A DNA stretch of 64,000 bases from the NCBI GenBank assembly GCA_964389685.1, contig CAYMFM010000001.1:143579-207578 (forward strand), written 5' to 3'. Below, in pieces: positions 19,111 to 43,007 of the stretch (positions are counted from its first letter, which is position 1; each line of letters begins with the position of its first letter). The notes beneath the pieces are model-generated. The model was not told where the DNA came from. It made no database searches and saw only the letters and a program-made list of their open reading frames with translations. The DNA is from an uncultured Rikenellaceae bacterium. Its GTDB lineage: Bacteria; Bacteroidota; Bacteroidia; Bacteroidales; VadinHA17. Both the position numbers and the translations under genes were made by a program.

Positions 19111-19118
19111 GTTCTTTT

Positions 19119-19217: not shown

Positions 19218-20390
19218 ATGTCAAGCTCCACAACACTCCCTCTCTCCTGGTTCCGTGACCACTTCACGCAGGAGATCCTGCCATACTGGTTGAAGTCAGC
19301 TGTTGACCCGAATGGTTTTTACTATCCCAACCTGAGCCGGGACTGGAGCCGGACCGGTGAATCCGTTGGTACGCTGGTCAGCCAGTCCCGTTTGCTCTAT
19401 GTTTTTTCCAATGGGTACCGGGTGACACGGGATCCTGAAATAATAAAAACCATCAGATCGGGTGGATCTTTTTTAATCGATTGTTTCTATGATGAGGAAG
19501 AAGGCGGTTTTGTCTGGGCTTGTGACGAAAATGGTTCGAAAAAAGATTTTACAAAAGACGCATATGGTCATGCATTTACCGTTCTTGGACTGGTGAATGC
19601 TTTCAGAGCAATTAAAGAAGAGATCTTTCTGGAGAAAGCACTGGAAATTTTTGACCTGCTTGATACACGTTTTGCCGATGAACAGGGTGGAATCATCTGG
19701 AAAATGAGCCGGGATTGGAAGGATCTGGATACGAACCGTTCTCAGAATCCCATCATGCATACCTTCGAGGCATTGCTGGCATTACTGTCCATCGTAAATC
19801 AGGAAGACCAGCGGACAAGGATACAGAATAAATTATCGGATCTGAAGGATTTTCTCTTTTCACGTGTTCCATCTGGTGACCGGATCATCTTTCCGGAATT
19901 GTATAACAGATCGTGGGAACCGATACACTCCGGGAACGGTGGCTACATTTCAGTGGGTCACCTTTTTGAGTGGGCATTCCTGCTGTCAAAAGGAGTGAAG
20001 AAAGGCCTGCCCGATACCAATCTTATCCTGGCCGGTAAATTATTGGAAACTTGTCTCTCATTGGGTTATCAAAAAGAAAAGGGCTATATTAAAACCTGGA
20101 TTGATGAGACGGGGAAGGTGATCCGGGATGAGATATCCTGGTGGGAACAATCGGAAGGGTTACGGACCCTGCTGCATTTCATCATACAGTTCGACCGGAC
20201 GGATCTGAAGAACTTTTTTGATGCCATTTTTCATTTTGTTCAGGATCATTTTCTCGATCCGGTATATGGTGGATGGTTCACCAGTTTAGATCCCCTTGGT
20301 TTGCCGCTGGACACGAACAAGGGCTCGACATGGAAGCTCGATTATCATCAGACAGCACTCTGTATGGAAGCCATTAACTATTTGACCTAA
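19218..20390 (+). CDS. AGE-family (N-acylglucosamine/cellobiose 2-epimerase-like) protein
   Basis: QSRLLYVFS, DAYGHAF, NPIMHTFEA, GHLFEWA, WWEQSEG, YHQ; likely start MSSSTTLP at 19218; no signal peptide. Confidence 0.88.
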   Translation: MSSSTTLPLSWFRDHFTQEILPYWLKSAVDPNGFYYPNLSRDWSRTGESVGTLVSQSRLLYVFSNGYRVTRDPEIIKTIRSGGSFLIDCFYDEEEGGFVWACDENGSKKDFTKDAYGHAFTVLGLVNAFRAIKEEIFLEKALEIFDLLDTRFADEQGGIIWKMSRDWKDLDTNRSQNPIMHTFEALLALLSIVNQEDQRTRIQNKLSDLKDFLFSRVPSGDRIIFPELYNRSWEPIHSGNGGYISVGHLFEWAFLLSKGVKKGLPDTNLILAGKLLETCLSLGYQKEKGYIKTWIDETGKVIRDEISWWEQSEGLRTLLHFIIQFDRTDLKNFFDAIFHFVQDHFLDPVYGGWFTSLDPLGLPLDTNKGSTWKLDYHQTALCMEAINYLT

Positions 20391-20407
20391 AACCAATACG
20401 ACACATC

Positions 20408-22513
20408 ATGACCATCTGGGGATTGCATTTGCTTGACTTTATTCTGATCCTTTTGTTTATTGCTGTCATTTTGTGGTTGGGGAGAAGGGCTGCAAAAAAG
20501 AACAGGGATACAGAGGATTTTTTCCTGGCTGGCAGGAAACTCGGGAAATTTTACCAGTTTTTCCTGAATTTCGGGTGTTCCACAAATGCCGACCAGGCTG
20601 TGGCTGTCTCGAGGGAGGTCTACAGGCAGGGCATCGGGGGCATGTGGATCCAGTTCCTGGTCCTGTTTCTCACACCCTTCTACTGGTTTAGCACATTCTT
20701 TTTCAGGCGTGTCCGGCTGACAACCATCGGTGATTTCTTTTCCGAACGGTTCAGGAGCAAATTCCTGGGAGCTGCCTATGCCGTTTTTTTCCTGCTGCTC
20801 TCCGTTCTGGGAGGAGGTGTGGGTTATATGGTGGCCGCAAAGACCATGATGGCAATGACACCCAAACCGATTGAGTTATTTACTGAAGAGGAGCAGGCAA
20901 GCATTGCTCAGTTTCAGGAGTACCAGGAGCTGCAATCAAAAATAGACCAGGGTTTGACTGTAGGAGAACAGACCCGGTATACTGTGTTGAACGAGAAAAA
21001 CAAGCGTGGTGAGCTCCACTCGTTTGTCTCCTATACCGATCCACTATGGTTCTATTTTATCTATGCCCTTATCGTTGGTGTGTATACCATGCTTGGAGGA
21101 TTTCGTGCTGCCGCCATTACCGATGGAATACAGGGGATCCTGATCATTATCTTTTCGGCAATCCTGATCCCGGTCGGGCTATCCAGGATTGGTGGTTTCT
21201 CAGGCCTGCATGCCAGTGTTCCGGATTTTATGTTCGAATTGTTCGGATCCACCACCCTGAGTGAATATGCCTGGTATACCATTCTTGCCATGGTTCTGGC
21301 AAACCTGGTTTCCATCATTGCTGTTGCTTCCGGTATGCAGACAGCCGGATCGGCAACCAACGAAATGACTGCCCGCATCGGAATGATCGGTGGTATGTTT
21401 GCCAAACGAATTATCATGATATTCTGGGCGCTGGCTGGTTTGCTGGCCATCGGATTGTTTGCAGGGCAATTGCACGACCCGGACCTGATCTGGGGATTCA
21501 TGACCAAGAAGCTTCTTTTTCCGGGAGCCATCGGGCTGATGCTGATCGGTATACTGGCAGCAAACATGTCCACACTCGATGCCAGTTCCGTATCCTATTC
21601 CGCTTTGTTTATTAAGAATTTATATAAGCCGTTTGTGTCTGAGAAGTCAGAAAAACACTATCTCTTCATTGGAAGGCTTGTAATTGCATTTACGCTGCTG
21701 GGGGGAATTGTCGTTGCCCTTTTTGTCAATAACCTGCTGGAGCTGTACAAATACATCATTTCCATACCTGCCATATTTGGAGCATCGATCTGGCTGGGAT
21801 TCATCTGGCGCCGTTTAACCAAATGGGCGGTGATCATTCAGGTGATTCTCTGTGCTGTCATTTATGCTGTTATTCCTAACCTGTTCCAGGGTCTGGATTC
21901 AGTGAAATACAATGAGAAATTTTTAATCGAAACAGCACAGAAGCAAATCACAGTATCTACCGAAGCATTAACGGAGGATGTCCAGTCAGGACTTGCAGAT
22001 TATGTGGGGCAAAAAATTGAAAGGCAGCACGTTATACCACCGGTTGGAATATTGTTCGAACGGGTTGCCCGCATTGATCCTTCCGATCCGGAATCTGAAA
22101 AAGTGGGTATCGGAAGATTTGAGGCAGAGGTGTGGGTGCTGAGTTGGTTCGGGATCGACTTTACACACTTTAAAAAATCACAGCTGGTGGCAACACGGTT
22201 TTTCTTTGATGCCCTTTTTCCAATCGTCCTGCTGGTATTGCTTTCTATGGTAACCAAACCGGTGGATAACCGTTCGCTGAATCGGTTTTTTGCAAAAATG
22301 CATACACCCGTCCAGCCCACTGCAGAGGAGGAAGAAAAAGCCATTGAAGCTTCCATTAACAATCCCGAACAGATAGAAAAAAGAAAACTGTTTCCTGGTT
22401 CGCAATGGGAACTGATGAAGCCAGGCAGATTGGATTATATTGGATTTGGCGGTAGCTGGATCCTGGTGGGGTTAGTCATTTTCCTCCTCTGGTTGATGGT
22501 GACGATACGATGA
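20408..22513 (+). CDS. Sodium:solute symporter family transporter (long variant)
   Basis: FFLAGRKLG, TDGIQG, AANMSTLDA; many TM segments; 701 aa. Confidence 0.9.
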   Translation: MTIWGLHLLDFILILLFIAVILWLGRRAAKKNRDTEDFFLAGRKLGKFYQFFLNFGCSTNADQAVAVSREVYRQGIGGMWIQFLVLFLTPFYWFSTFFFRRVRLTTIGDFFSERFRSKFLGAAYAVFFLLLSVLGGGVGYMVAAKTMMAMTPKPIELFTEEEQASIAQFQEYQELQSKIDQGLTVGEQTRYTVLNEKNKRGELHSFVSYTDPLWFYFIYALIVGVYTMLGGFRAAAITDGIQGILIIIFSAILIPVGLSRIGGFSGLHASVPDFMFELFGSTTLSEYAWYTILAMVLANLVSIIAVASGMQTAGSATNEMTARIGMIGGMFAKRIIMIFWALAGLLAIGLFAGQLHDPDLIWGFMTKKLLFPGAIGLMLIGILAANMSTLDASSVSYSALFIKNLYKPFVSEKSEKHYLFIGRLVIAFTLLGGIVVALFVNNLLELYKYIISIPAIFGASIWLGFIWRRLTKWAVIIQVILCAVIYAVIPNLFQGLDSVKYNEKFLIETAQKQITVSTEALTEDVQSGLADYVGQKIERQHVIPPVGILFERVARIDPSDPESEKVGIGRFEAEVWVLSWFGIDFTHFKKSQLVATRFFFDALFPIVLLVLLSMVTKPVDNRSLNRFFAKMHTPVQPTAEEEEKAIEASINNPEQIEKRKLFPGSQWELMKPGRLDYIGFGGSWILVGLVIFLLWLMVTIR

Positions 22514-22558
22514 ATGAAATGTGTATTATTGCATTTATTCAAGTTGATATTTACTGTT

Positions 22559-22594
22559 GTCCCCCTTTTCAGAAAAGGGGGATAAAGGGGGATT
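22559..22594. repeat. REP-like hairpin / possible terminator
   Basis: TCCCCCTTTTCAGAAAAGGGGGA followed by TAAAGGGGGATT. Confidence 0.6.
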
Positions 22595-22639
22595 TTAAAA
22601 AAGCCCGACATAAAATATAAGCGCAAGCCAATTCACTGA

Positions 22640-24490
22640 ATGATGAAATTAACACTCTTTTATTTTGCACTACTCACATTCATTTTAACCGGTTCTTCGT
22701 GCCGGCAAAAAACAGGGCAATGTGTGGTCACAGGGGAACTGAAGAAATGGCATAAGGTGACATTGACCGTTACAGGACCACCGGTTCATGAACTGGATAC
22801 GCCCAACCCCTTTCTTGATTACAGGCTTAATGTGAATTTCAAACATGAAAACAGGAAATACCTGGTTCCTGGTTTCTATTCAGCAGACGGGAATGCGGCA
22901 CAATCAGGTGCTTCCAAAGGTGAAAAATGGCAGGTCAGGTTTGTCCCGGATCAGGAAGGCAGGTGGGAATATATTGTATCATTCAGAAAAGGGGAAAGCA
23001 TAGCCATCAGTGATGATCCCAATACCGGAGAACCAGCAGGATTCGATGGTTTAGAAGGATCGTTCATCATCGGACCAACCGACAAAGAAGGAAGGGATCT
23101 GCGGGCTAAAGGTAAACTCCGGTATATTGGTGAACGATACCTTCACTTCGCGGAGACAGGAGAATATTTTCTGAAAGGCGGGGCGGACAGTCCCGAGAAT
23201 TTCCTGGCTTATGTTGATTTTGATGATACCTATTTCTCTGGTGATGAAATGAAAAGGAGCGGGGAAGCAACACCCAATATAAACCTGCATCGATATTCCA
23301 ACCATCTGAAAGACTGGAATCCGGGGGATCCGAGCTGGCAGGACAACAAGGGGAAGAGCATTATTGGTGCCCTGAATTACCTTGCATCTGAAGGAATGAA
23401 TTCTGTTTATTTCCTGACCCTGAATATCCAGGGTGACGGGAATGATGTCTGGCCCTATACCTCTCCTGATGAACGATACCGGTTCGATTGCAGCAAGCTG
23501 GATCAATGGGAGATCGTTTTCAGCCATATGGATAAGCTTGGGATAATGCTGCATATCGTCACCCAGGAGACTGAAAATGAGACCCTGCTTGACAATGGTG
23601 ATACCGGTATTCAGCGAAAGCTGTATTACCGTGAACTGCTTGCACGGTTCAGCCACCACCTTGCCGTTACGTGGAATATGGGTGAGGAGAACGGACCTGC
23701 TGATTTTACCTCCGGAGGACAGTCGATTGAGCAACAAAAAGCGATGACCCGATACATGAAAGAGCATGATCCGTATGAGAATTTTGTGGTTATCCACACC
23801 CATTCAAACCCGAAATACCGGTACAGGATCTTTGACCAGTTGACTGGCTATGCTTACCTTGATGGACCTTCTATACAGGTGGGTAACTTAATGAATGCTC
23901 ATGAAGAAACATTGGTCTGGCTTGAAAAATCATCGAATGCGAAGAAGCAGTGGGTTGTGAATGTTGATGAGATCGGACCTGCCAGCAGGGGTGTTGATCC
24001 GGATGACCGGCAACCCAATAACCTGGATAGCGTCAGGCGTTATGTTCTCTGGGCAAACCTGATGGCCGGAGGAGGTGGTGTGGAATGGTATTTTGGATAC
24101 GATAATCATGATAATGACCTGAACTGTGAAGACTGGCGTTCCCGTGACCATCTTTGGGGACAGACCAGAATTGCACTGGAGTTTTTTCACCACTATTTAC
24201 CATTCCAGGAGATGGTGAGCATGGATACACTGACGACATCTGAAACCGATTATTGCCTGGCACGCCCTGGTAACATCTATGCCATCTATCTGCCTGATGG
24301 GGGAACAACCGATTTGGATCTTTCAGACAGTAACGAACGATTTACTGTCAGATGGTTTAATACAAGGGCAGGTGGAGAGATGATCCTGGGATCGGTGACC
24401 GAAATAAAGGGAGGAACTGTTGTGTCCCTCGGGGATCCTCCGGAGCATAGTGAAAAAGACTGGGCAGTGTTGATCGAACGAGTCAATTGA
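22640..24490 (+). CDS. DUF5060-domain lipoprotein (glycoside-hydrolase-like TIM barrel with C-terminal beta domain)
   Basis: Lipobox GSSC; GELKKWHKVTL, NPFLDYRL, GGADSPENFL, WNMGEEN, GGGGVEWYFG. Confidence 0.78.
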   Translation: MMKLTLFYFALLTFILTGSSCRQKTGQCVVTGELKKWHKVTLTVTGPPVHELDTPNPFLDYRLNVNFKHENRKYLVPGFYSADGNAAQSGASKGEKWQVRFVPDQEGRWEYIVSFRKGESIAISDDPNTGEPAGFDGLEGSFIIGPTDKEGRDLRAKGKLRYIGERYLHFAETGEYFLKGGADSPENFLAYVDFDDTYFSGDEMKRSGEATPNINLHRYSNHLKDWNPGDPSWQDNKGKSIIGALNYLASEGMNSVYFLTLNIQGDGNDVWPYTSPDERYRFDCSKLDQWEIVFSHMDKLGIMLHIVTQETENETLLDNGDTGIQRKLYYRELLARFSHHLAVTWNMGEENGPADFTSGGQSIEQQKAMTRYMKEHDPYENFVVIHTHSNPKYRYRIFDQLTGYAYLDGPSIQVGNLMNAHEETLVWLEKSSNAKKQWVVNVDEIGPASRGVDPDDRQPNNLDSVRRYVLWANLMAGGGGVEWYFGYDNHDNDLNCEDWRSRDHLWGQTRIALEFFHHYLPFQEMVSMDTLTTSETDYCLARPGNIYAIYLPDGGTTDLDLSDSNERFTVRWFNTRAGGEMILGSVTEIKGGTVVSLGDPPEHSEKDWAVLIERVN

Positions 24491-24582
24491 TGAAAATTTC
24501 AGGCCGCTCCCAGCCGGGCAGGCCTACGGAGCTCTGATAATATTTCAATCTGAATCAATTAGTAGACACAGTAAAAAACATA

Positions 24583-26175
24583 ATGGAAATCGAAATAAAA
24601 ACCGGGAAACCTGAATTTGACAGTTTCTATCCGCTGGTCAAATCCTTTCTTGAAAAAGATGTGCTGGAAGTCAATATCGATGGACAGAAGATCCGGGGAT
24701 ACCGCTCACCGGATACGCGGTCAATATGGATCAGGGATTATTCTGATATTCTGCGCGCTGTAAAATATTTTGAACATGACCTGACCAGCACCATTCGTCA
24801 TTTTGCTGATAATCAAAATAGACAGGGACGGATTTTTGATTATTTTACCACCTTCCCTGAAAAACTTCCGTGCGAGAAGGAGAACTGGACAAAATATGTC
24901 AGGGTACCCGTAGAAGCGGATGTTGAATACCGGTTTGTAAAAGCAACATACCTTGCCTGGCAGGCAACCGGTGATGATGAATTCCTCCAGGAGATGATCC
25001 CTTCCCTGGAAAAGGCATTGACCTATGTATTGCATCATTCGCCCTATTGGGATAAAAAGGCAGGCCTGGTAAAAAGACCCTATACGATCGACACCTGGGA
25101 TTTTGCATATAACGCTGGAAAACACGAATGGCTGCAGTTTCAAATCGATGATGATACCTTCTGGGGCTTCATGCACGGGGATAACAGCGGGTATTATGAA
25201 GCCTTTCTGATCATGTCCCTTTTCCATGATTATTTTACCAGAAGCGGATTAGCCGACCAATGGAGAGCAAGGGCAGCTGCGTTACGCGAAGCGATGAACA
25301 GAACGTGTTGGAACGGTTCATATTATACCCATTTTGTGAAAATCGATCCGGTATCCATTCCGGGAGTGGAAGAATCCGTTCAGCTTAGCCTGAGCAATCC
25401 GATGAATATCAACCGGGGAGTTGCCAGCCACGAAATGGCGCGGTCCATCATTCAGGAATACCGGAAACGACATGCAGAAAAGGCCAGTTTTGCTGAATGG
25501 TACTCCATTGACCCACCCTTTCCGGATGGGATCTTCGGTGACGATAAACTGGTGAAAGGCGCTTACGTCAATGGCGGAATCATGCCCATAGTAGGAGGAG
25601 AACTTGCCCGTGCAGCATTCGATCATGGTTTTGAGGAGTATGCAATCAGTATATTAAAACAATATTACCGGATGATTTCCGAGACGGGCGAAACCTACCT
25701 CTGGTATTTTCCGGATGGAAAACCATCCTCCGTGGAAACCAGTACAAGTCCGGATGCAGAACCCACTGACGGCTGGGGCTCCAGCGCAATGCTCCATGCA
25801 CTCATTGAAGGATTGGCAGGAGTTACCGATCACCATAAAATGTTGCAAAAAATTGAGCTCTCACCGCGATGGTATGCTGCCTGTATCTCCAGGGCGGAGG
25901 TGAAGGTTAGTTATGCAGCTTCCGGTTGTAGTATTCGTTATTCCTATGTTTTGCAAGAGAACCGCTTGTTATTGGAGGTGGAAGCCACCGCTACCGAAGT
26001 TGATTTTCATGTCTTGATACCGGAGACTTCATCCGTATCCCGGGTTGAAGCGAACGGAACAGCTATATTCTTCAGAATGATCCTTATTGAAAAAAGCAAT
26101 TACGTTGATTTTACAGTCAATATTAAGAAAAAGAGCACCATTAAAATTAATTTAGTGAGGAAAGAAAATGAATAG
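24583..26175 (+). CDS. Cytoplasmic six-hairpin glycosidase-like protein (family not assigned)
   Basis: WIRD, EADVEY, DTWDF, YVNGG and DGWGSSA acidic/aromatic motifs of (alpha/alpha)6 hydrolases; no signal peptide. Confidence 0.55.
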   Translation: MEIEIKTGKPEFDSFYPLVKSFLEKDVLEVNIDGQKIRGYRSPDTRSIWIRDYSDILRAVKYFEHDLTSTIRHFADNQNRQGRIFDYFTTFPEKLPCEKENWTKYVRVPVEADVEYRFVKATYLAWQATGDDEFLQEMIPSLEKALTYVLHHSPYWDKKAGLVKRPYTIDTWDFAYNAGKHEWLQFQIDDDTFWGFMHGDNSGYYEAFLIMSLFHDYFTRSGLADQWRARAAALREAMNRTCWNGSYYTHFVKIDPVSIPGVEESVQLSLSNPMNINRGVASHEMARSIIQEYRKRHAEKASFAEWYSIDPPFPDGIFGDDKLVKGAYVNGGIMPIVGGELARAAFDHGFEEYAISILKQYYRMISETGETYLWYFPDGKPSSVETSTSPDAEPTDGWGSSAMLHALIEGLAGVTDHHKMLQKIELSPRWYAACISRAEVKVSYAASGCSIRYSYVLQENRLLLEVEATATEVDFHVLIPETSSVSRVEANGTAIFFRMILIEKSNYVDFTVNIKKKSTIKINLVRKENE

Positions 26176-27448
26176 AAATCAGTTTCTTACTACCCTGGGT
26201 ACACTTACCGGAGGAACATTGCTGGCAAGACCCGCTCTGGCTGACTGTTTGCTCCCGGGTGAACAGGCAAAAAAGATTACCGATGAAACATCCTTCTGGA
26301 AGTTTGTTAGAGAACAGTTTCTTTTTCCTGAAGACTACAGCTACCTGAACACTGGTGGAATTGGTGCGGTGCCCCTCCTTGTCCTGAATCGTGTAAAAAC
26401 ATCGATGGATAAAATGGAAATTTATCCCAGGCCCGGACATGATCATGAAAAGTGGCTCATGGCAAAAGAGACCTGCTGCAAATTGCTCGGGGATGATTGT
26501 GTTAAAGAAGAGCTGGCTTTTACCAGCACGGCAACCGAGGGGATCAACATCGTTATTAACGGATTGCATTTAGAACCTGGCGATGAAGTGATAACCTCCA
26601 CCCACGAACATCCTGCACTCCATATTCCATTACTAAACCAGGTAAAAAGCAGGGGAGTCGTATTACGAACTTTTCATCCTGACATGGAAAACGGTTACGG
26701 AAATGTTCAGCGGATCAGTGAATTGATCACACGCAAGACCAGGCTTATTTTCATCAGCCATGTTACATGCACAACAGGACAGGTTTTTCCCATCAAAGAG
26801 ATTGCAGGCCTGGCAAAATCAAAGGGGATCCTGTTTGCTGTCGATGGAGCGCAGGCAGTTGGTCAAATACCGGTTGACCTCAAAAATTTTGGTGTTGACT
26901 GTTATACTTTTAGCGGACACAAATGGATGCTTGGTCCTAAACGTACGGGTGTTCTGTTTGTAAACAACAACAAACTGGAAGCCATCCAACCGGTAACCGT
27001 TGGAGCATATTCGGATGACGGGTATGATACTGAATCCAGAATATTAACATATCATCCTACTGCTCAGCGGTTTGAATACGGTACACAGAATGAATCACTC
27101 TTTCATGGTTTTCAGGAAGGAGCTGAGTTTATCCTGACCATAGGGCTCCAACGGATTATCGAACGAAACAGGAAAATGGCTGAGGCATTCTATCATGGAT
27201 TGGAAAATCTTTCAGCAATAACAATCCTCTCCCCCGAAGAGGAGAAATACCGCTCATCAATGATCACCTTCAAAAGCAAATCACATGATAACGGAGAGAT
27301 AGCGTCCTATCTGTCCGGGAAGAGGATCCGCGTACGGGTTGTGAATGAAGCCAACCTGGGAGGGATCAGGGTCTCCTTCCATCTCTATAATGATGATTCA
27401 GATGTGGAAAAGATCCTGTCGGAGATTGAAAAATTTGTTACTGCGTAA
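26168..27448 (+). CDS. Class V PLP-dependent aminotransferase/lyase-like protein with a Tat-like leader
   Basis: YLNTGG, ATEG, HEHPA, DGAQ, SGHKW (PLP Lys), RFEYGT, RVSFHLYN; leader MNRNQFL...PALA. Confidence 0.88.
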   Translation: MNRNQFLTTLGTLTGGTLLARPALADCLLPGEQAKKITDETSFWKFVREQFLFPEDYSYLNTGGIGAVPLLVLNRVKTSMDKMEIYPRPGHDHEKWLMAKETCCKLLGDDCVKEELAFTSTATEGINIVINGLHLEPGDEVITSTHEHPALHIPLLNQVKSRGVVLRTFHPDMENGYGNVQRISELITRKTRLIFISHVTCTTGQVFPIKEIAGLAKSKGILFAVDGAQAVGQIPVDLKNFGVDCYTFSGHKWMLGPKRTGVLFVNNNKLEAIQPVTVGAYSDDGYDTESRILTYHPTAQRFEYGTQNESLFHGFQEGAEFILTIGLQRIIERNRKMAEAFYHGLENLSAITILSPEEEKYRSSMITFKSKSHDNGEIASYLSGKRIRVRVVNEANLGGIRVSFHLYNDDSDVEKILSEIEKFVTA

Positions 27449-27458
27449 AATAAAATGT

Positions 27459-29861: not shown

Positions 29862-30845
29862 ATGAAGTTCAAAGTAGGAATTGATAATTACAGCCTGTCT
29901 CCATTAAACCTGGAACCATTGAAGGTGTTAGCTTGGGCGGAGAAAAACAAGGCAGATGGGGTTTCATTTTCCGGTTTGCCGGAAGGAAGAAGTAACCCCG
30001 ATTATGAATACCTGAAATCGCTGAAAGCCTTTGGAAAAGAACACAACCTCTACCTCGAATGGGGAGGAGCACAACATATTCCCCGCGATATGAACTCGTG
30101 GGAGAAAAAAGATCTGTTTCAACACAACCGAAATGTTGCCCGGGAAGCAGAAATTCTCGGAACAAGGATCATGCGGTCGTGTTCCGGCGGACTGATGCGA
30201 TGGAATCCGGCAAATCCACCAACCGATGCATTGTTGAAAGAAATGGCCAATGCCTTGAAAGTTCAGAAACAGATGCTGATGGACCACCACGTAATACTAG
30301 CCATAGAAACACACTTTGAGTTTACCACCTTCGAACTGCTGAAAGTTTTTGAGATGTGTGAAACTGAGCCAGGAGAGTGTCTTGGAATTTGTCTCGATAC
30401 CATGAACCTGCTGGTTATGCTGGAAGACCCGGTCGGTGCTACCGAACGGATCCTTCCATGGGTGGTGTCCACTCACATAAAAGATGGCGCCATTACCCTG
30501 TGCGACAGTGGTTTGTCGGTATTTACCGTGGAAACCGGCAAAGGAATTATTAACCTGAAACGGATCATTGAATTGCTGGATACACTACCGAATGAGGTTA
30601 CTCTCTCCATAGAGGATCACGGGGGTGACTTCGATATCCCGGTGTATGATCCGGATTTCCTGGCTGAATTTCCGAATTTGTCGAAGGAAGAATTCATTAA
30701 CCTGATCAACCTTGTAAAATTATCACAGCAGAAGATCGTAGATGGAAAGATATCTCCTCTTTCCCGTGATAAATGGCCGGATGTATGTGAGGAAAGGGTG
30801 ATTGATGATATTGCGAATATCAGAAAAATCATTTCGGAAATTTAG
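29862..30845 (+). CDS. Sugar-phosphate isomerase/epimerase (xylose-isomerase-like TIM barrel)
   Basis: Metal-ligand motifs AIETHFE, ICLDTMN, STHIKDG and IEDHG. Confidence 0.82.
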   Translation: MKFKVGIDNYSLSPLNLEPLKVLAWAEKNKADGVSFSGLPEGRSNPDYEYLKSLKAFGKEHNLYLEWGGAQHIPRDMNSWEKKDLFQHNRNVAREAEILGTRIMRSCSGGLMRWNPANPPTDALLKEMANALKVQKQMLMDHHVILAIETHFEFTTFELLKVFEMCETEPGECLGICLDTMNLLVMLEDPVGATERILPWVVSTHIKDGAITLCDSGLSVFTVETGKGIINLKRIIELLDTLPNEVTLSIEDHGGDFDIPVYDPDFLAEFPNLSKEEFINLINLVKLSQQKIVDGKISPLSRDKWPDVCEERVIDDIANIRKIISEI

Positions 30846-32265: not shown

Positions 32266-33065
32266 GACAGATGGGAAATAACCAGAAAGTAGCCATTGTG
32301 TCCGGCGTAAGCCGGGGAATTGGAAAAGCAACAGCTATTCGTCTTGCAGAAGCAGGATATGCCATTGCAGGAATATCCCGGACAATACATTCTCCGGGAT
32401 CAGAAAAAAATCGTGCCGAACTTGAAACTTCAATTTCGGAGTATGGAGTGGATTTCAAATCCTACACCCTGGATATTGCTGATATTGAAAGCCACCAGAA
32501 CGTGATCGACAACATCATGAAGGATCTTGGCCGGATTGATCTGCTTGTGAATAACGCCGGAGTTGCCCCGGTAAAACGCATGGATCTGCTTGAAACAACC
32601 CCGGAAAGTTACGACCGGGTCATGGGAATAAACCTTCGCGGTCCCCTCTTTTTCACACAACGGGTGGTCAATACCATGATCGGGCTGCAGGGAAAGATTG
32701 ATCCGTATTTTCCACGAATTGTGTTCATCACCTCTGTTTCAGCCGTGATGTCTTCGGTAAACAGAGGGGAATATTGCATCTCCAAAGCCGGTTTGAGCAT
32801 GGCCAGCCAGCTCTTTGCCGACCGCCTCTCAAAAATGGGTATAGTCGTTTTTGAAGTAAGACCCGGGATCATACGGACCGATATGACGGCTCCGGTTAAG
32901 GAGAAGTATGACAGCATGATCGCTGATGGTTTAATCCCTCAGGACCGGTGGGGTCATCCCGATGATATCGCGAAAACCGTTGCTGCCATTGTTACTGGCA
33001 ATTTTGACTATTCCACCGGAATGATATTTGAAGTGAGCGGGGGCATGAATATCCGGAGTTTGTGA
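32259..33065 (+). CDS. SDR oxidoreductase (3-ketoacyl-ACP reductase-like, PRK12745 type)
   Basis: GVSRGIG, NNAG, YCISK, RPGIIRTDM. Confidence 0.88.
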   Translation: MLRQMGNNQKVAIVSGVSRGIGKATAIRLAEAGYAIAGISRTIHSPGSEKNRAELETSISEYGVDFKSYTLDIADIESHQNVIDNIMKDLGRIDLLVNNAGVAPVKRMDLLETTPESYDRVMGINLRGPLFFTQRVVNTMIGLQGKIDPYFPRIVFITSVSAVMSSVNRGEYCISKAGLSMASQLFADRLSKMGIVVFEVRPGIIRTDMTAPVKEKYDSMIADGLIPQDRWGHPDDIAKTVAAIVTGNFDYSTGMIFEVSGGMNIRSL

Positions 33066-35963: not shown

Positions 35964-37190
35964 ATGGACTATAAAAAAAGAAATAGCGTATCCGTTTTGA
36001 TGGTTGGAATCGGAGGGTACGGATTCTATTACCTGAAGAACCTGTTTGAACATTTCAGTGACGAAGAGATTGAGATGAGCGGTGTGGTTGATCCTTTTGC
36101 CGCGAACTCCGGATTATACCGGGAGATAAAGAGACGGAGGATTCCCATTTGTAACTCCCTTATGGATTTTTACATCAAGGGAGGAAGCGCTGACCTTGTG
36201 GTCATTTCTTCTCCATTGCAATATCACATCGAACAGTCCTGTATTGCCCTGATTAATGGAGGCAACGTATTGTGCGATAAACCACTCGGTACTGTGATAC
36301 AGGATATTGATGAACTGTTATTGGCGAGAAAGCAATCGGGCAGATGGGTTATGATTGGGTACCAGTGGTCCTACTCCAACGCGATCCAGGAGTTAAAAAG
36401 GGATATTATTTCCGGACTGTATGGTAAACCCATACGGATGAAATCACTCTGTTTCTGGCCCCGGGGGAAAGATTATTATGAAAGGAATGAATGGGCCGGA
36501 AAGTTAAGGGATGAAAAAGAACGGTGGGTTCTCGATAGTCCCCTGGGAAACGCGATGGCACATTTCATACACAACCTCTTCTACCTGCTCGGCAGGGAAA
36601 TGAATGAGAGTGATCAACCGGCCGGGATCCAGGGTGAATGTTACCGAACCTATCCCATTCAGAATTACGACACCGGTGTGTTCAGGGCATACACTGCCTG
36701 TGGTGTGGAAATCTTGTTTTACGGATCGCACGTTACCGCCTGTGAAAGAGGCCCAATGTTTCATCTGGAGTTTGAAGATGGAACCGTTACATTTGGTGAT
36801 GAACAGGACCGGATCGTCGCTACTACACGGGAGGGGAGGAAGAAAGACTATGGTTCCCCGGAGGACGATGATCAGTTCCTTAAACTTCACGAAGCAATGA
36901 AAGCTGTAAGGGAAGACCGGCCGGTGATTTGTGGTCCGGAAGCAGCTACTGCACAGGTTCTGTGTATTAATGGAGTCCAGGATTCAGTGGAAGAGATCGC
37001 TGCTTTCCCTTTCGATAGACTGGTGATGGATGAACAAAAGGAACGATTCTGGATCGATGGTCTCGGTGAAGAGTTGTATGCGTGTTACCGGGACAACAGA
37101 TTGCCTTCGGAGACAAACCTGCCCTGGGCTGTTCCGGGTAAAATAATCGATTTGAGAAATTATGTGTACTTTCCCGGAGGGAGAAGATGA
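35964..37190 (+). CDS. Gfo/Idh/MocA oxidoreductase
   Basis: VGIGGYG, LCDKP, IGYQW, NAMAHFIHN. Confidence 0.88.
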   Translation: MDYKKRNSVSVLMVGIGGYGFYYLKNLFEHFSDEEIEMSGVVDPFAANSGLYREIKRRRIPICNSLMDFYIKGGSADLVVISSPLQYHIEQSCIALINGGNVLCDKPLGTVIQDIDELLLARKQSGRWVMIGYQWSYSNAIQELKRDIISGLYGKPIRMKSLCFWPRGKDYYERNEWAGKLRDEKERWVLDSPLGNAMAHFIHNLFYLLGREMNESDQPAGIQGECYRTYPIQNYDTGVFRAYTACGVEILFYGSHVTACERGPMFHLEFEDGTVTFGDEQDRIVATTREGRKKDYGSPEDDDQFLKLHEAMKAVREDRPVICGPEAATAQVLCINGVQDSVEEIAAFPFDRLVMDEQKERFWIDGLGEELYACYRDNRLPSETNLPWAVPGKIIDLRNYVYFPGGRR

Positions 37191-37298: not shown

Positions 37299-38309
37299 AT
37301 GACCCGCAAAACCCTGGTACAAAAAACGCTGGAATTTGATTCCCCTGAACGAATCCCACGACAGATCTGGATTCTTCCCTGGGCGGATGATCATTATCCG
37401 GATTTTACCCAACGATTACGAATGACATTTCCCGATGATGTTGTGCAGACACCGGTTTACTATAGAAAGCCACCTGTGATATCTGGAAATAAATATAAAT
37501 CGGGGTATTACGTGGATGAATGGGGTTGTGAGTTCAAAAACATTCATGAAGGGTTGATGGGTGTGGTTCAGAAACCACTCATTGCAGATCCGATGCATTA
37601 CCATGATTTGAAAACTCCAGAAACTATTCTGACCCTTGATGTTGAAGAAATCAAACGGTTTTGCAAATACACGGACCAGTTTACCCTGGCAGGAAATTTT
37701 CAGCGTCCTTTTGAACGGTTTCAATTCATAAGAACGATGGAATTGGCATTCATGGACCTGGCTGTGGAACCTCCGGGATTGAAAGAACTGTTGAATGTCA
37801 TCCATCAGCACTACTGCAAAGAGGTAGAATCGTGGGCAGAAACGCCCGTGGATGCGATCTATCTGATGGATGATTGGGGAACGCAACATGGCTTGATCAC
37901 CTCTCCGGACATCTTCAGGAAATATTTCAAGCCGATGTACAAAGAGTATGTTGAAATTGCAAAACAGTATGGGAAATATGTATTCATGCATTCCGACGGA
38001 GCAATCAGTGAGATAATCCCTGACCTCATCGAGCTTGGAATTGACGCATTGAATTCGCAATTATTCTGTATGAATATCCAGGAGTTGGCCGAAAAACATA
38101 GCGGTAAACTCACATTCTGGGGTGAAATAGACCGTCAGCATATGCTTCCGGATTGCAGTCAGGAAGAGATTGAGCATGCTGTTTATCAACTGTTTCAATT
38201 GTTCTACAAGAAGGGAGGAGTGATCGCACAGTGTGAGTTTGGACCGGGAGCCAAACCGGAAAATGTCTGGACGGTATTTGAAACCTGGAACAGACTCACC
38301 CACGAATAA
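37299..38309 (+). CDS. UroD/MtaA-CmuA (methylcobamide methyltransferase-like) family protein
   Basis: VDEWGC, PFERFQFIR, MDDWGTQ, SPDIFRKYFKP, FMHSDG, FWGEIDRQ. Confidence 0.82.
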   Translation: MTRKTLVQKTLEFDSPERIPRQIWILPWADDHYPDFTQRLRMTFPDDVVQTPVYYRKPPVISGNKYKSGYYVDEWGCEFKNIHEGLMGVVQKPLIADPMHYHDLKTPETILTLDVEEIKRFCKYTDQFTLAGNFQRPFERFQFIRTMELAFMDLAVEPPGLKELLNVIHQHYCKEVESWAETPVDAIYLMDDWGTQHGLITSPDIFRKYFKPMYKEYVEIAKQYGKYVFMHSDGAISEIIPDLIELGIDALNSQLFCMNIQELAEKHSGKLTFWGEIDRQHMLPDCSQEEIEHAVYQLFQLFYKKGGVIAQCEFGPGAKPENVWTVFETWNRLTHE

Positions 38310-38322
38310 CGATCGGAAAGAA

Positions 38323-39240
38323 ATGGCAGAAAAATATGTCATTGGCATTGACCTGGGGGGTACAAAAGTGGAAGCCTGCCTGATGGATTCACGCCGCAAG
38401 GTGCTGTCCAGACACCGGGTTTTATCCCAACCCCGGAAAGGATTGGACCAGGTTATCAGGAATATTCAAACCGTTGTTAAAGCGGTTTCAAAGAACTACC
38501 CGATTGAAGCGATCGGTATGGGTACACCGGGCACCCACGAACCGGTGGAGGATGTGTTACACGGATCACCCCACACCCCGGTTTATGAATTACCGGGATT
38601 TATGGGCAGGGTAAGGGCGCAATTTAACCTTCCCCTTCTGGTGGAAAACGATGCCAATTGCCTTGCACTGGCTGAGTATTTTGGGAACTATGAGGAAAAA
38701 TATTCCTATGTCTTAGCCGTTATCATTGGAACCGGTATGGGATATGGACTGATCCTGGATAAAAAATTATACCGTGGGATGCATGGAGCTGCAGGTGAAA
38801 TAGGTCATACCACCATCGATTACCGGGGGAGGAAATGTGAGTGTGGACGGTTAGGGTGTGCTGAAGCGTATCTCTCCGGACCCAGCCAGTGTAGAAGATA
38901 TCATGAAATCAGTGGAGAAAAAAAGTCACTTCAACAGATTTGGGAATTATACCAGGGAGGAGATCCCGGAGCCACCGCCCTGTTCGAGGAGAGTTGCGAG
39001 ATCATGGCACAGGTATTTGCCAATGTGGTCAATGCATTTGACCTGGAAGCAATTATCCTGGGGGGAGGAGTATCGAATATTCCCATCTGGTATGAGAATG
39101 TTCCACCCATCATGAGGCAATCCTTTTTTGGCCCTCCCAGAGGAGAAATCCCTGTTTTGAAAGCCAGAATGGGTGATTCAGCAGGAGTGCTGGGAGCAGC
39201 TTATCTTGCTCTGAGGGAGCTGGGGGAAATGAGCTTTTAA
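38323..39240 (+). CDS. ROK-family sugar kinase
   Basis: GIDLGGTK, ENDANCLALAE, GTGMGYG, GAAGEIGH, Zn motif CECGRLGCAE; start MAEKY at 38323. Confidence 0.92.
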   Translation: MAEKYVIGIDLGGTKVEACLMDSRRKVLSRHRVLSQPRKGLDQVIRNIQTVVKAVSKNYPIEAIGMGTPGTHEPVEDVLHGSPHTPVYELPGFMGRVRAQFNLPLLVENDANCLALAEYFGNYEEKYSYVLAVIIGTGMGYGLILDKKLYRGMHGAAGEIGHTTIDYRGRKCECGRLGCAEAYLSGPSQCRRYHEISGEKKSLQQIWELYQGGDPGATALFEESCEIMAQVFANVVNAFDLEAIILGGGVSNIPIWYENVPPIMRQSFFGPPRGEIPVLKARMGDSAGVLGAAYLALRELGEMSF

Positions 39241-39369
39241 ATAACGTCCATCGTTTGTCGATAACGGAAACAAAACGACCGACGTTTAACGACCAACGAC
39301 CCGGGTTTCGTAACCAAATACCCCTGCCTGCCGGCAGGCAGGGAATAACGAATCAAAAACCATCATATC

Positions 39370-41682
39370 ATGAAAAAATTTACATTCATTTCCTTGTTCA
39401 TGCTCTTTTTCACTACAGCATCCTTTTCCCAGTCCCCCGACCCCATCCCCATGGACCAATACCTGGAGTTTGCCAGGAAATCGGCTGACTGGACGTGGGA
39501 AAATATGGATTCATTAATGGCGGCCTGGCGAGAAACACTCGATCCGTTGAGTGTTTTTGGATACCGTCCCCCCGGACGGATCCTGGAGATGGCAACCATC
39601 TATGCAACGTTGTATGAAAAGGAAGAAAAGGAGGAATATGCCGAAAGGGCTAAAAAGATCTTGCTGATCTATGATGATTTCAAAAAGGAATACCCGGAAG
39701 AAGCGGTCCAGAAGCGCCCGGATTATGGGAACGGAGTACCGGCTCTTCCCGATTTCTTTACCACCATGCGGTATGCACGACCTTATGAAATCCTGAAAAG
39801 ACTCGGATACCTGAATAAAAAAGAGCAGGAAAAGATTGATGAAGTGATCGCACACAGCATGGATTACCTCCTTCAAACACAGGAATGGGGGCCCATGAAC
39901 CGGACTGCCCTTCGGGCAGAAGCGCTGGCCTGGTCAATCCGTGCAGTACCAAACCATCAAAAAACACCAACCTGGAAGATGACTGAACAGGCTCTGGGTT
40001 TTGATAACTGGGGGAATTGGGAGATTGAAGATGCCACCATCTATCATGGTGTATGGCTCTATGCCCTGCTCGGTTATGCCGATGCCAAAAATAGGGTGGA
40101 GGAGCTTTTTAAAACCCCGGAGATGTATTATTATGCCCACTATTTCCTTCAGCTGATGTCTCCTGACGGGATGATACCCGACTTCGGTGATGCAACCTTG
40201 CATTCAAACTGGAACCGGTACCTGGTCTACTTTGAAGCAGCAGCAAACATCTATCGAAATCCGGAATTGAAATGGGCCGCTGCCGTAATCGCAAGGAAGT
40301 TCATCGATTTTGACCGGATAGAGAATACAGGATTAGCCTATATGTTACTCGATTGTTACCGTTATGGCACGGATGATGTCAAACCCAGAGTACCGGAAAA
40401 CTTAAGTAGCGAAGTGATGGAAGATGTGCAGGGCAAGAAGATCGTTTTCCGGAATGGATGGACACCGGAATCTACCTATATGCTGTTAAACTATAGGGAT
40501 GAGGGAGATGGAGGATTGCTGTTCAGAGATTACCTGCGCGATGTCATACCGGTAGAAGAGGAAAAAATGACCCATGGACATGCCGATGAAAACAGCATCG
40601 TCCTGCTGATGAAGAACGGATCGGTGTTGCTGCATGACGGAGGTTACCGGGATTTTATGCCGAGCGGACCCTACGGAGCCTATCGCCAGGACTACTTCCA
40701 TAACCGGTTGTGTGTGCGGCAGGAAAAAATATTTATGGGACAGAAAGAGGGTGAATGGAGATACAGCCCAACCGATCATCCGGAAATACCCGGACAACCG
40801 GTACTCGATTTTCTTCATAACGCCGGATCATACCGGATCATCAGAACACAGAAAATCGATTTTCTTACTTTCCCCGATTTTGACTACAGCCGAACCCGGT
40901 TGATCGATGAAAAACTGGGCTATGAATGGGACAGGGTCATTACCTATATTAAGGATCCTGAAATGGTTGTGGTGTTTGACATCGTGAAAGCCCGGGTTGA
41001 GGAGTTCTTTACAGCAGCAAACCTCTGGCATACCCGGGAGATAATAAAACAGGGAAATCACTGGTACGATACCCGGTATGATTCCATCGGGAACCTGAAA
41101 CTCAATGCAAATACCAACCTGCTGATCCACTTTCCAAAATCACATTTCCGGATCGAACAAACGGAAATGGCAAAACGGTATTACCAGGCTGAATGGGTGA
41201 TATCGGAAACAACAGGACAACATTTTGAATTGGGACAAACCATTGGGTTTGTGACCGTTTTGATACCCCATCCACACACAGAACCGCCTGAAAACCTGAT
41301 TTCTCAAATCCGGTATATCGGATCCGAATCCACTGGAAAGGGAATGTCGGTTGAGATCCGGAAAGGAGACCGGGTCATTCACGTCGGTGTGAAGAATGAC
41401 CTTCGAATGGATATGTTCCGGGATTATCGCAGACCGAAATATACCTATGAATCGGGCAAAATTAGCTACGGACCGTTTGAAACCAACGGAGATTTTTTCT
41501 ATACCGAGCGAAAGGGCGACATCCTCAATTTTACCGTGGTGAACCTGACAAAAGCGTTTTACCAGGATCAGGTACTGTATGAACAGCAATCCGGCTATTT
41601 CGGACTGGCTTTTGATGGCAGTGCAGATGTTTCAGGATTAGGCAAGGCAAGGTATTGGAGAAACAAAATGAAGGTTGAATGA
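39370..41682 (+). CDS. Secreted heparinase II/III-like (polysaccharide-lyase-fold) protein
   Basis: Signal peptide; PDFGD and HGHADENSIVL...LLHDGGY...HN resemble heparinase II/III motifs. Confidence 0.55.
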   Translation: MKKFTFISLFMLFFTTASFSQSPDPIPMDQYLEFARKSADWTWENMDSLMAAWRETLDPLSVFGYRPPGRILEMATIYATLYEKEEKEEYAERAKKILLIYDDFKKEYPEEAVQKRPDYGNGVPALPDFFTTMRYARPYEILKRLGYLNKKEQEKIDEVIAHSMDYLLQTQEWGPMNRTALRAEALAWSIRAVPNHQKTPTWKMTEQALGFDNWGNWEIEDATIYHGVWLYALLGYADAKNRVEELFKTPEMYYYAHYFLQLMSPDGMIPDFGDATLHSNWNRYLVYFEAAANIYRNPELKWAAAVIARKFIDFDRIENTGLAYMLLDCYRYGTDDVKPRVPENLSSEVMEDVQGKKIVFRNGWTPESTYMLLNYRDEGDGGLLFRDYLRDVIPVEEEKMTHGHADENSIVLLMKNGSVLLHDGGYRDFMPSGPYGAYRQDYFHNRLCVRQEKIFMGQKEGEWRYSPTDHPEIPGQPVLDFLHNAGSYRIIRTQKIDFLTFPDFDYSRTRLIDEKLGYEWDRVITYIKDPEMVVVFDIVKARVEEFFTAANLWHTREIIKQGNHWYDTRYDSIGNLKLNANTNLLIHFPKSHFRIEQTEMAKRYYQAEWVISETTGQHFELGQTIGFVTVLIPHPHTEPPENLISQIRYIGSESTGKGMSVEIRKGDRVIHVGVKNDLRMDMFRDYRRPKYTYESGKISYGPFETNGDFFYTERKGDILNFTVVNLTKAFYQDQVLYEQQSGYFGLAFDGSADVSGLGKARYWRNKMKVE

Positions 41683-41684
41683 TT

Positions 41685-41865
41685 CGCCATAGGCGTGCCT
41701 GCGGCAAAGGATGCCTTGCCTGCCGGCAGGCATGATGGATGAAGGAGTTGATTGGGAGACGTTGTGACTTTGAGACTGTGAGAGGAAGAGTGATGAGTAG
41801 TGAGATCCGCCTTCGTTACCTCCTTCGTTAGAACTACGGAGGTCAAGAAAACTACGGCGGACAAG
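41685..41865. repeat. Mosaic of heptamer-array modules and nested palindromic elements
   Basis: Reverse-complement copies of the modules at 19121-19190, and a 30-bp element nested in a 30-bp element at 41806-41865. Confidence 0.85.
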
Positions 41866-42344
41866 GATGAGTTGTGAGTAGAAATAGTTGCTGGGTCCTC
41901 GGTCCTGGGTACTGGGAAAAGAAATGATTAGTGAGATAGGAGTTACGAGATACACCTGCCTGGTCGGCATACAGAGGTTAAAAGTTACAGGGAATTAGAA
42001 GGGAGGACAAGGGAGTATATGGTTAGAATAAATAAATTAGCCCCAGCGGGGCGATGTGTCTTTAGCCCAGGGTTACGCCGATACAACGGTCCAACTGCCT
42101 GGTAATTCTTCGGGAAAGCCTTCCCTGGACCGAAAAGCACCAGGCATTGAAACGAAGAGAGGGGGAGCCTTAGAGACTAAGAGAATGAGGATGGCTGAAC
42201 GGGTCCGCAAAAATGACTACACAAAACAACCCCGCTCCGTAGGTGCTGAACCACTTGCACAATATATTTTGAGATAGATAAAATAAAATCCTATTTTTGA
42301 TTTTTTAAAAAATCAAGTCATATAGCACCTAACTGCAATACATT

Positions 42345-43007
42345 ATGAGCGACCTTCTTGTACGATTAGCCCACTGTGTGGAACATGGTAAGATCAATAA
42401 AGCATCTCCCTATCCCCCCGAAATGAAGGGGGAAGATGGAGCGGATGAGCTGACTGCGCAGGCATTGAAGGAAGGGATATCCCCGCAGGATATTCTTTCC
42501 AAAGCATTTGAAGTGGGGATGGAACGGGTGGGTAAAAAGTTTGCGGAAAACAAAGTTTTTGTTCCGCAATTGCTGATGTCGGCAAAAGCAATGACGACTG
42601 CTATGGAGCACATCAAACCCTTTTTCCAGGCCGGGGATGTGAAACGAAAAGGAGTGTTCGTTATAGGAACCGTAAAGGGGGATTTACACGATATCGGGAA
42701 AAACCTGGTAGCTATGATGGTCGAGGGGAATGGCTGGGAAGTGATTGACCTGGGTGTGGATGTTGGTGTTGACAGGATCATGGAACAGCTGGATAAACAT
42801 CGTGGCGCTGCCGTGGGTATGTCAGCATTGCTTACCACAACCATGGTGAACATGGAAGGTGCGATAATAGAGATTAAAGAAAAATACCCGGAAACAAAGA
42901 TACTGGTCGGAGGTGCCCCTCTGACCACAGATTATTGCAGGAAGATCGGGGCAGATTTTTACTCCCCTGATCCGCAGGGAGCAGTAGAGTATTTGAACTC
43001 ACTTTAA
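42345..43007 (+). CDS. Stand-alone cobalamin-binding corrinoid protein (MtaC/MtbC-like)
   Basis: Cap domain (GMERVGKKF...FVPQLLMSAKAM) and the base-off B12 motif GDLHDIGKN...SALLTTT...VGGAP. Confidence 0.95.
   Translation: MSDLLVRLAHCVEHGKINKASPYPPEMKGEDGADELTAQALKEGISPQDILSKAFEVGMERVGKKFAENKVFVPQLLMSAKAMTTAMEHIKPFFQAGDVKRKGVFVIGTVKGDLHDIGKNLVAMMVEGNGWEVIDLGVDVGVDRIMEQLDKHRGAAVGMSALLTTTMVNMEGAIIEIKEKYPETKILVGGAPLTTDYCRKIGADFYSPDPQGAVEYLNSL

Follow-up and report, generated by a model that had tools for sequence, protein, structure and literature searches.

Does a glycoside-catabolism locus of an uncultured Rikenellaceae bacterium (Bacteroidota) contain a B12-dependent methyl-transfer step? 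The locus lies on the plus strand of a 64,000-nucleotide stretch of contig CAYMFM010000001.1 (hereafter the window), where genes run unbroken from 19.2 to 43.0 kb (19218–43007) in the open reading frame (ORF) listing. Alongside transport, hydrolase, oxidoreductase and kinase genes (Table 1), the run includes a gene for a UroD-superfamily, MtaA-like protein (hereafter the UroD-like protein) and ends with one for a stand-alone corrinoid protein. The initial annotation, made from the sequence alone, had proposed that this pair demethylates an O-methylated sugar or glycoside. After analysing protein families, predicted structures and the neighbourhoods of related genes, we lean towards a corrinoid-dependent methyltransferase step within the glycoside pathway, with the UroD-like protein as its enzyme. 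A functional link between UroD-like and corrinoid proteins was supported, but the corrinoid gene of the window did not emerge as a dedicated operon partner.

The UroD-like protein was characterized by structure prediction and by comparison with its own family. Its AlphaFold model (predicted local distance difference test score, pLDDT, 94) matched MtaA of Methanosarcina mazei best in Foldseek (4ay8/4ay7; E 4e-14, template modelling score, TM, 0.73), with HemE/UroD structures behind (TM 0.61–0.70), while neither a single-sequence nor a profile search of PDB sequences gave a match. Assignment to HemE was rejected, as NCBIfam searches at E ≤ 0.01 returned MtaA/MtbA-type models only and the neighbouring genes are sugar-catabolic. 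Scores were below the curated cutoffs (TIGR01463, 31.7 versus 235.4 bits; NF040654, 28.5 versus 400) and the exact zinc motif was not matched; the UroD-like protein is therefore outside the MtaA/CmuA families. The initial annotation had remarked on an HSDG motif in place of the H-x-C zinc motif. HSDG is indeed present (residues 231–234, 37989–38000), but the site is otherwise kept: in BLASTP and hhalign alignments with a paralogue that carries the canonical H-I-C...C-E site and resembles the second methyltransferase (MT2) of corrinoid systems, HSDG aligns with HICG and QCEFG with GCEIT. Because both segments align in the MtaA-type register, the difference is a Cys-to-Asp change inside a retained predicted metal site and not a loss of the site. 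In 92 sequences of the family, H231 and D233 (37989–37997) and E313 were invariant and C312 was present in 88 (C312/E313, 38232–38237). Other invariant residues were D73, W75, E139, D191, D192, W193, E276 and D278, a set of acidic and Trp residues that would suit a carbohydrate ligand.

UroD-like proteins are a distinct, uncharacterised family. Searches at E ≤ 1e-5 collected 5482 clusters, and carriers comprised at least 580 species genomes with record titles from Bacteroidota, Aminicenantes/Acidobacteriota, Chloroflexota, Latescibacterota, Gemmatimonadota, Planctomycetota, Spirochaetota and Clostridia; this phylum spread was read from the titles, some of which, for metagenome-assembled genomes, resemble placeholder taxonomy. 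Conservation was unusually high, at 50–65% identity between carrier groups.

Evidence for a partnership with corrinoid proteins came from more distant relatives of the locus. In four species genomes, whose UroD-like proteins are 65–69% identical to one another, a corrinoid gene lies directly 5' of the UroD-like gene, with a 4-bp overlap between the two in one genome (L077). A metagenome scan with a profile of this coupled clade found a corrinoid gene 0–57 bp upstream in 19 of the 41 loci having room for one; four more loci end at a contig edge. The translationally coupled UroD-like proteins are 46–51% identical to that of the window and are encoded among homologues of the same pathway genes: the operon, consisting of the corrinoid gene, the UroD-like gene and a gene for a secreted protein of about 290 residues, is divergent from TIM-barrel and OYE homologues and is followed by an SSS homologue. 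The secreted protein (L081, 11090–11956; about 20 loci) has no Pfam domain and no homologue in the window, and its gene always comes after the corrinoid–UroD-like pair. A fusion of the two functions was also found, as the best match in a representative library of 1.84 billion proteins. Its 592 residues comprise B12-binding_2, B12-binding and UroD-like domains, the last 46% identical to the window protein, and the gene (L153) is a single uninterrupted ORF with even GC content at third codon positions. After it come genes for an SSS symporter (62% identical to that of the window), a Tat-leader class-V pyridoxal phosphate (PLP) enzyme (37%) and a homologue of the 770-residue lyase-like protein of the window (38%). 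The coupled clade and the fusion retain every invariant residue of the UroD-like family.

The initial annotation had held that its proposal would fail if UroD-like homologues in such loci never occurred with corrinoid proteins; because the coupled clade and the fusion exist, they do co-occur. From this coupling and fusion it follows that B12-dependent methyl transfer is probably part of the pathway. Taken with the MtaA-like model and the register of the site, these sequence comparisons make a corrinoid protein a very probable partner of the UroD-like protein.

Several observations weigh against such a step, however. Within the UroD-like protein itself, the canonical H-x-C is altered and the score is far under the MtaA/CmuA curated cutoff, and the fusion is known from one sequence on one contig (its 90% cluster has a single member). 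Among the 78 species-level loci of our neighbourhood matrix, for which flanks of 5–10 kb were fetched on each side, 38 were well flanked (at least 5 kb on both sides), and 37 of these had no corrinoid gene in the fetched flanks, the constant partners being Gfo and GH38. In the window, a 662-bp spacer parts the corrinoid gene from the last pathway gene, the corrinoid gene lies outside two palindromic elements that bracket the locus, and an unrelated CotH gene with type IX secretion system (T9SS) sorting domains begins 25 bp downstream. Corrinoid proteins about 69% identical to that of the window share operons in other Bacteroidota with other URO-D paralogues. No cobalamin riboswitch was detected in the window at the gathering threshold, or in 41600–42400 at E ≤ 5. 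Homologues of RACo, PF02574, PF02965, CobW and pterin-binding proteins were likewise absent from the 64 kb (phmmer, and Pfam scans of the other large ORFs), in agreement with the initial annotation, which had seen no activator. It had also noted that no first methyltransferase (MT1) was visible. As a worry this is misplaced: the UroD-like protein may itself be the 'missing' MT1, because UroD-superfamily enzymes serve as methyltransferase I of O-demethylases (PMC10418091).

Of the alternatives, the one that survives best accepts that the UroD-like protein is corrinoid-dependent but denies that the corrinoid gene next to the locus is dedicated to it. This gene would instead belong to a general methyl-transfer or split-MetH-type system, adjacent by local synteny, and the UroD-like protein would use another or a shared carrier. 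The initial annotation had counted the corrinoid gene in the run of pathway genes, and membership of the operon was not borne out. In addition to the spacer, the octamer TATTTTTG (42292–42299) fits the Bacteroidetes TAnnTTTG motif 46 nucleotides 5' of the ATG, with promoter-like hexamers as well, and the spacer's final ~170 nucleotides show 78% conservation in relatives, whereas L001, L002 and L004 have no match to most of what precedes them. Given the spacer, the promoter-like site, the conserved 3' end of the spacer and the CotH gene downstream, the corrinoid gene is probably outside the operon and transcribed on its own. The pairing of corrinoid and CotH genes is kept in close relatives, not in CP070687. 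In addition, corrinoid proteins from the coupled clade reach just 40–44% identity to that of the window.

The separate operons that encode the corrinoid proteins about 69% identical to that of the window represent an uncharacterised methyl-transfer system of Bacteroidota (L092 and L093, 5688–12882; L094, 6958–13542). Their gene order is a GntR/periplasmic-binding-domain (sugar-binding) regulator, two to three URO-D paralogues, the corrinoid protein, PF02574, CobW, and either a MetH reactivation domain (PF02965) or RACo; one of the URO-D paralogues is fused to a thioredoxin-like domain. At about 20% identity to the UroD-like protein of the window, these paralogues were rejected as members of its family.

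Linkage of the corrinoid gene to the locus nevertheless argues against mere adjacency. It was seen in close relatives and in one distant Bacteroidota lineage, though not elsewhere. The corrinoid gene stays at the locus end in relatives with 77–88% UroD-like identity, including a genome whose rearranged locus has lost GH38, Gfo, OYE and SDR. In the distant Bacteroidota lineage (L005 and L006; UroD-like protein 61% and corrinoid protein 66% identical to those of the window) a corrinoid module is also found at the locus end in a different orientation, 7 kb downstream on the other strand, where the corrinoid gene shares an operon with PF02574 (homocysteine S-methyltransferase) and PF02965 (MetH reactivation). 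This trio comes without a dedicated methyl-donor enzyme, and no URO-D gene besides the UroD-like one lies within 10 kb. Nor did Pfam scans of the large ORFs reveal a second URO-D gene in the 64-kb window. We regard a non-dedicated corrinoid neighbour as unlikely.

A second alternative is that the UroD-like protein works without a corrinoid in most organisms, as a decarboxylase, hydratase or alkyl transferase of the UroD/MetE fold acting on the product of the Gfo enzyme, and that the corrinoid gene is an unrelated neighbour. The superfamily contains cofactor-free decarboxylases and the corrinoid-independent MetE (PMC10418091), and Asp takes the place of the first zinc-motif Cys. No neighbour of the UroD-like gene is more constant than Gfo, which lies directly 5' of it in 47 of 65 species loci; GH38 occurs in 42 of the 78 loci and SDR in 30, and the 770-residue protein, OYE and ROK also recur. 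In Firmicutes (L084, Robinsoniella peoriensis, 2261–12172; L088, Clostridium sediminicola, 5164–11005), the UroD-like gene is found in sugar ABC-transporter operons, where it adjoins a second and different URO-D paralogue, and corrinoid genes are absent within 10 kb; the Robinsoniella locus additionally encodes a GH106-like protein and an AraC regulator. On its own, then, the neighbourhood matrix counts against a corrinoid link, a balance that the sequence evidence from the coupled clade, the fusion and the L005/L006 trio reverses. The tight coupling in a diversified clade and the fusion, both with the invariant residues and the same adjacent pathway homologues, are at odds with a corrinoid-free enzyme, as is the fact that, to our knowledge, stand-alone corrinoid proteins with a cap and a Rossmann domain are methyl carriers. 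We consider a corrinoid-free role improbable. It is also possible, by analogy with the chemistry of 3-keto-glycoside pathways, that oxidation by Gfo followed by beta-elimination could strip a methoxy group without B12, a further point against a corrinoid-dependent step.

The weakest alternative, that the UroD-like protein acts in the MT2 direction and methylates a pathway intermediate on a thiol or hydroxyl from methyl-Co(III) with no demethylation, draws on its nearest structure being an MT2 enzyme (MtaA) and on the resemblance of the conserved Cys/His/Glu-type site to acceptor-activating zinc sites, and is very improbable given the catabolic setting (transporter, hydrolase, kinase, aldolase), the L005 PF02574 module that already supplies an MT2-type acceptor enzyme, and the Cys-to-Asp change, which would make the site less like thiol-activating sites.

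The demethylating direction is thus favoured by the catabolic setting and the L005 acceptor module, and a corrinoid-dependent demethylation can be fitted to the locus as follows. The genes would specify a conserved pathway that handles, in the cytoplasm, a small glycoside probably containing mannose. An exported lyase-fold protein, the DUF5060 lipoprotein and the Tat-exported PLP enzyme would free the glycoside from an acidic glycan, and the SSS symporter, likely the importer of the pathway substrate, would take it in; homologues of this symporter that are 61–72% identical adjoin UroD-like genes in other phyla. GH38 would then cleave the glycoside and ROK would phosphorylate the freed hexose, with Gfo, the TIM barrel, OYE, SDR and AGE proteins contributing oxidation, isomerisation and reduction steps. 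The UroD-like protein, MtaA-like in fold and presumably metal-dependent, would most likely carry a methyl group over from a sugar-derived substrate to Co(I) of a corrinoid carrier (the MT1 role). The likely carrier is the corrinoid protein, encoded 4 kb downstream under a predicted promoter of its own; this protein may be common to other methyltransferases. Enzymes encoded outside the window would pass the methyl group on, and the homocysteine S-methyltransferase and MetH-type reactivation modules of the related lineage would make methionine the sink.

As to the substrate, the lyase fold, GH38, a KDPG aldolase encoded nearby and the acidic, Trp-rich site of the UroD-like protein suggest a methylated constituent of a glycan that is acidic and contains mannose. 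A methylated cyclitol glycoside would fit as well with the weak IolG-like matches of Gfo, the TIM barrel and the kinase, and the methyl donors may be N- or S-methyl compounds.

The coordinates of the genes and other features are collected in Table 1. Where the initial annotation had counted 16 co-oriented genes, the ORF listing with the spacers rechecked gave 15; a sixteenth hidden in the 393-bp or the 662-bp spacer was rejected, the ORFs there being unconvincing. Its overlaps at 26168/26175 and 32259/32265 and its abutment at 35963/35964 were as it gave them. The families that it named were confirmed by Pfam and NCBIfam scans of the window ORFs, but its list had passed over the class-V PLP gene and the ~784-residue orphan. 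Judged by gene lengths in relatives, the likely true starts are at 19218 (AGE), 27459 (orphan), 30931 (OYE) and 38323 (ROK); the ORFs as listed open at 19179, 30802 and 38233 for AGE, OYE and ROK, respectively.

Table 1. Genes and other sequence features of the locus, in window coordinates.
Feature	Position	Strand	Evidence
Palindrome-containing element 5' of first gene	19118–19190	.	core TGCCTGCCGGCAGGCA at 19164–19179
AGE-superfamily epimerase/isomerase, cytoplasmic	19218–20390	+	PF07221 E 5e-42; start = Met14
SSS sodium:solute symporter, 701 aa	20408–22513	+	PF00474 E 2e-19
DUF5060/Collagen_bind_2 lipoprotein, exported	22640–24490	+	Pfam; lipoprotein-type leader ending in Cys
Possible six-hairpin GH-like protein, cytoplasmic	24583–26175	+	weak MGH1-like PF22422, E 1e-4
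Class-V PLP enzyme (SufS/PvdN-like), Tat-type leader	26168–27448	+	PF00266 E 1e-64
Orphan, ~784 aa	27459–29813	+	unmatched in Pfam, NCBIfam, PDB
Xylose-isomerase-like TIM barrel (AP_endonuc_2)	29862–30845	+	PF01261 E 4e-14
OYE-type flavin oxidoreductase	30931–32265	+	PF00724 E 3e-32
SDR	32259–33065	+	PF13561 and PF00106
GH38 alpha-mannosidase-family enzyme, cytoplasmic	33459–35963	+	full set of GH38 domains (Pfam)
Gfo/Idh/MocA oxidoreductase	35964–37190	+	PF01408
UroD-superfamily MtaA-like protein	37299–38309	+	URO-D PF01208 E 2e-18
ROK-family sugar kinase	38323–39240	+	PF00480 E 4e-69
Perfect 22-bp palindrome CCCTGCCTGCCGGCAGGCAGGG	39322–39343	.	between ROK and lyase-like genes
Exported orphan with polysaccharide-lyase-like fold, 770 aa	39370–41682	+	Sec-type leader; AlphaFold and Foldseek
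Palindrome-containing element 3' of lyase-like gene	41684–41746	.	inverted copy of 19118–19190
Promoter-like region of corrinoid gene	42256–42299	+	consensus scan; weak evidence
Stand-alone corrinoid protein	42345–43007	+	B12-binding_2 PF02607 E 2e-19; B12-binding PF02310 E 2e-25

Leader sequences place the DUF5060 lipoprotein, the PLP enzyme and the 770-residue protein outside the cytoplasm, while the GH38, Gfo, UroD-like, ROK, TIM-barrel, OYE, SDR and AGE proteins have no leader. Pfam scans of the large ORFs of the window found neither a SusC/SusD pair nor a TonB-dependent receptor, leaving uptake to the SSS symporter; without a SusC/SusD pair, the locus is not a classical polysaccharide utilization locus. 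The AGE protein matched cellobiose 2-epimerase and mannose isomerase models of NCBIfam weakly, the ROK protein scored under all NCBIfam equivalog cutoffs, and PDB matches of the Gfo protein were generic only. Sequence matches of the GH38 protein in the PDB were Ams1 and Bl_Man38, over the N-terminal ~380 residues only. For the possible six-hairpin protein, PF22422 gave 22.4 bits, under its 27-bit cutoff, with GH116 at E 0.0075 and GH94 at E 0.04. In the corrinoid protein, which consists of a B12 cap and a Rossmann domain, the DxHxxG motif reported initially was recovered as D113-L-H115-D-I-G118 (42681–42698); TIGR02370 scored 174.1 bits, under the 215.3 cutoff, and PDB matches (1y80, 7xcn, 3ezx) included corrinoid proteins for trimethylamine and monomethylamine, and MetH.

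The locus contains two large, strongly conserved orphan proteins without a family assignment, one of them lyase-like in fold. This 770-residue protein had been called heparinase-like; the resemblance in fold held, but the Pfam match was marginal (Hepar_II_III_C, E 0.045). Its AlphaFold model, of moderate confidence (pLDDT 73), combines an (alpha/alpha) toroid with a beta-sandwich, an architecture predicted in common with PL39, PL17 and PL15 alginate lyases and heparinase II/III (Foldseek E 1e-17 to 1e-12, TM 0.45–0.57). Identity to these enzymes is 12–15% and scores are under every family hidden Markov model threshold. Its relatives at 63–72% identity have source names of KSB1, Calditrichaeota, Planctomycetota and Acidobacteria, and all that are named are 'hypothetical'. 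The second orphan, of ~784 residues, was seen in 24 of the 78 species loci. Homologues of the PLP enzyme adjoin it repeatedly, and in L153 also adjoin the corrinoid::UroD-like fusion. PDB sequence searches gave zero matches for either orphan, the MGH1-like protein or the DUF5060 protein. The PLP enzyme, whose leader is MNRNQFLTTLGTLTGGTLLARPALA, matches the periplasmic PvdN model of NCBIfam over its full length (E 2e-34); a Tat-leader enzyme resembling the pyoverdine-tailoring PvdN is an odd member for a sugar locus.

A GC-rich perfect palindrome of 16 nucleotides, TGCCTGCCGGCAGGCA, was found three times in the window against none expected (19164–19179, 39325–39340 and 41717–41732). All three copies are intergenic, one before the first gene and one on either side of the lyase-like gene. 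The outer copies sit in inverted repeats of about 65 bp that bracket 22.5 kb of the locus and leave the corrinoid gene outside (19118–19190 and 41685–41746; inverted blastn match, 95% over 41 nucleotides). The exact 16-mer was absent from those other loci against which it was compared. Its possible roles are those of an operator, an RNA hairpin or an element resembling repetitive extragenic palindromes. The idea that the inverted repeats are the ends of a mobile cassette was weakened by the internal third copy and by Pfam scans of neighbouring ORFs, which found no recombinase families.

Beside the first palindromic element, directly upstream of the locus, is a gene for a 23S rRNA intervening-sequence protein (four-helix bundle; 18763–19110). 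The minus strand from 10275 to 18349 encodes ThuA, two Gfo/Idh/MocA proteins (one with a Tat signal), DUF6807, DUF1295 and the KDPG/KHG aldolase. This aldolase gene (17717–18349) lies just upstream of the locus and, judging from the corresponding locus of L009, which contains an aldolase, may serve the plus-strand pathway. Downstream, the CotH kinase-like protein (43033–46608) has 1191 residues with lamin-tail, Fn3-associated and T9SS sorting domains. An arabinose-utilisation cluster follows (46852–61653), with an NrtR/AraR-type Nudix regulator, SSS, AraA, class II aldolase, alpha-L-arabinofuranosidase, FGGY kinase, GH127 and BNR/sortilin-like genes.

Compared with characterized systems, the UroD-like protein most resembles the methylcobamide:coenzyme M (CoM) methyltransferases MtaA, MtbA and MtsA (MT2; 4ay7/4ay8), with which it shares a TIM-barrel UroD fold, the best structural match and the His...Cys-Glu register; in related loci, a corrinoid protein of cap-plus-Rossmann type is encoded beside it. 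It differs from them in its 15% identity, in the replacement of the first zinc Cys by Asp throughout the 92 sequences, and in its setting in a glycoside catabolic locus without a methanogenesis or CoM context. The O-demethylases of acetogens and Desulfitobacterium are alike by superfamily and by logic, a methyl ether donating its methyl group to Co(I) on a separate corrinoid protein. Known substrates of O-demethylases are aryl methyl ethers, and a sugar or cyclitol methyl ether presents a much poorer leaving group. The four-component O-demethylases further differ from the locus in that the window contains no methyltransferase II or activating enzyme and the hosts are not acetogens. Their methyltransferase I (OdmB/VdmB type) is a UroD-superfamily substrate:corrinoid methyltransferase (PMC10418091), and these systems require reactivation of oxidised cobalt (PMC6739815). 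A shared small corrinoid protein with separate reactivation genes is found in the MtgBCDE/split methionine synthase systems of Ruegeria pomeroyi and Phaeobacter inhibens (PMC12478193, PMC5764234); MtgC of R. pomeroyi serves both glycine-betaine demethylation and the split methionine synthase, from dispersed genes (PMC12478193). The corrinoid, PF02574 and PF02965 genes next to the sugar locus in L005 and L006 are similar in this respect, whereas MtgBCDE acts on glycine betaine through a substrate enzyme of the MttB family instead of a UroD-like protein, and the window has only the corrinoid module.

The initial annotation knew of no characterized pathway of this kind, and the full-text literature that we searched agrees: neither a corrinoid-dependent carbohydrate demethylase nor this gene combination was found, and the only carbohydrate demethylation encountered was an oxygen-dependent P450 system. 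In that system, a P450 of marine Bacteroidota demethylates 6-O-methyl-D-galactose during algal glycan catabolism, releasing formaldehyde (PMC6292453). Removal of a methyl ether from a sugar is common to both, but their families are unrelated, and the P450 reaction does without a corrinoid.

For the family as a whole, a role in anoxic, cobamide-dependent removal of methyl ethers from sugars or cyclitols, with the methyl group passing via a small corrinoid protein to homocysteine or folate, is a tentative suggestion that we hold to be rather doubtful. Methylated sugars block ordinary glycoside hydrolases and kinases. If the corrinoid-dependent step is real, it would match the P450 sugar demethylases without needing oxygen, would explain the use of methylated sugars by anaerobes in sediments, digesters and guts, and would extend the corrinoid methyltransferases by a new class of substrate and a new variant of metal site. 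The UroD-like family is large and conserved, and its presence in cultured Firmicutes (R. peoriensis, C. sediminicola) makes it directly testable. With such a step, breakdown of glycans would be tied to B12 supply and to methionine synthesis, and the use of a particular glycan would depend on the B12 supply of the community.

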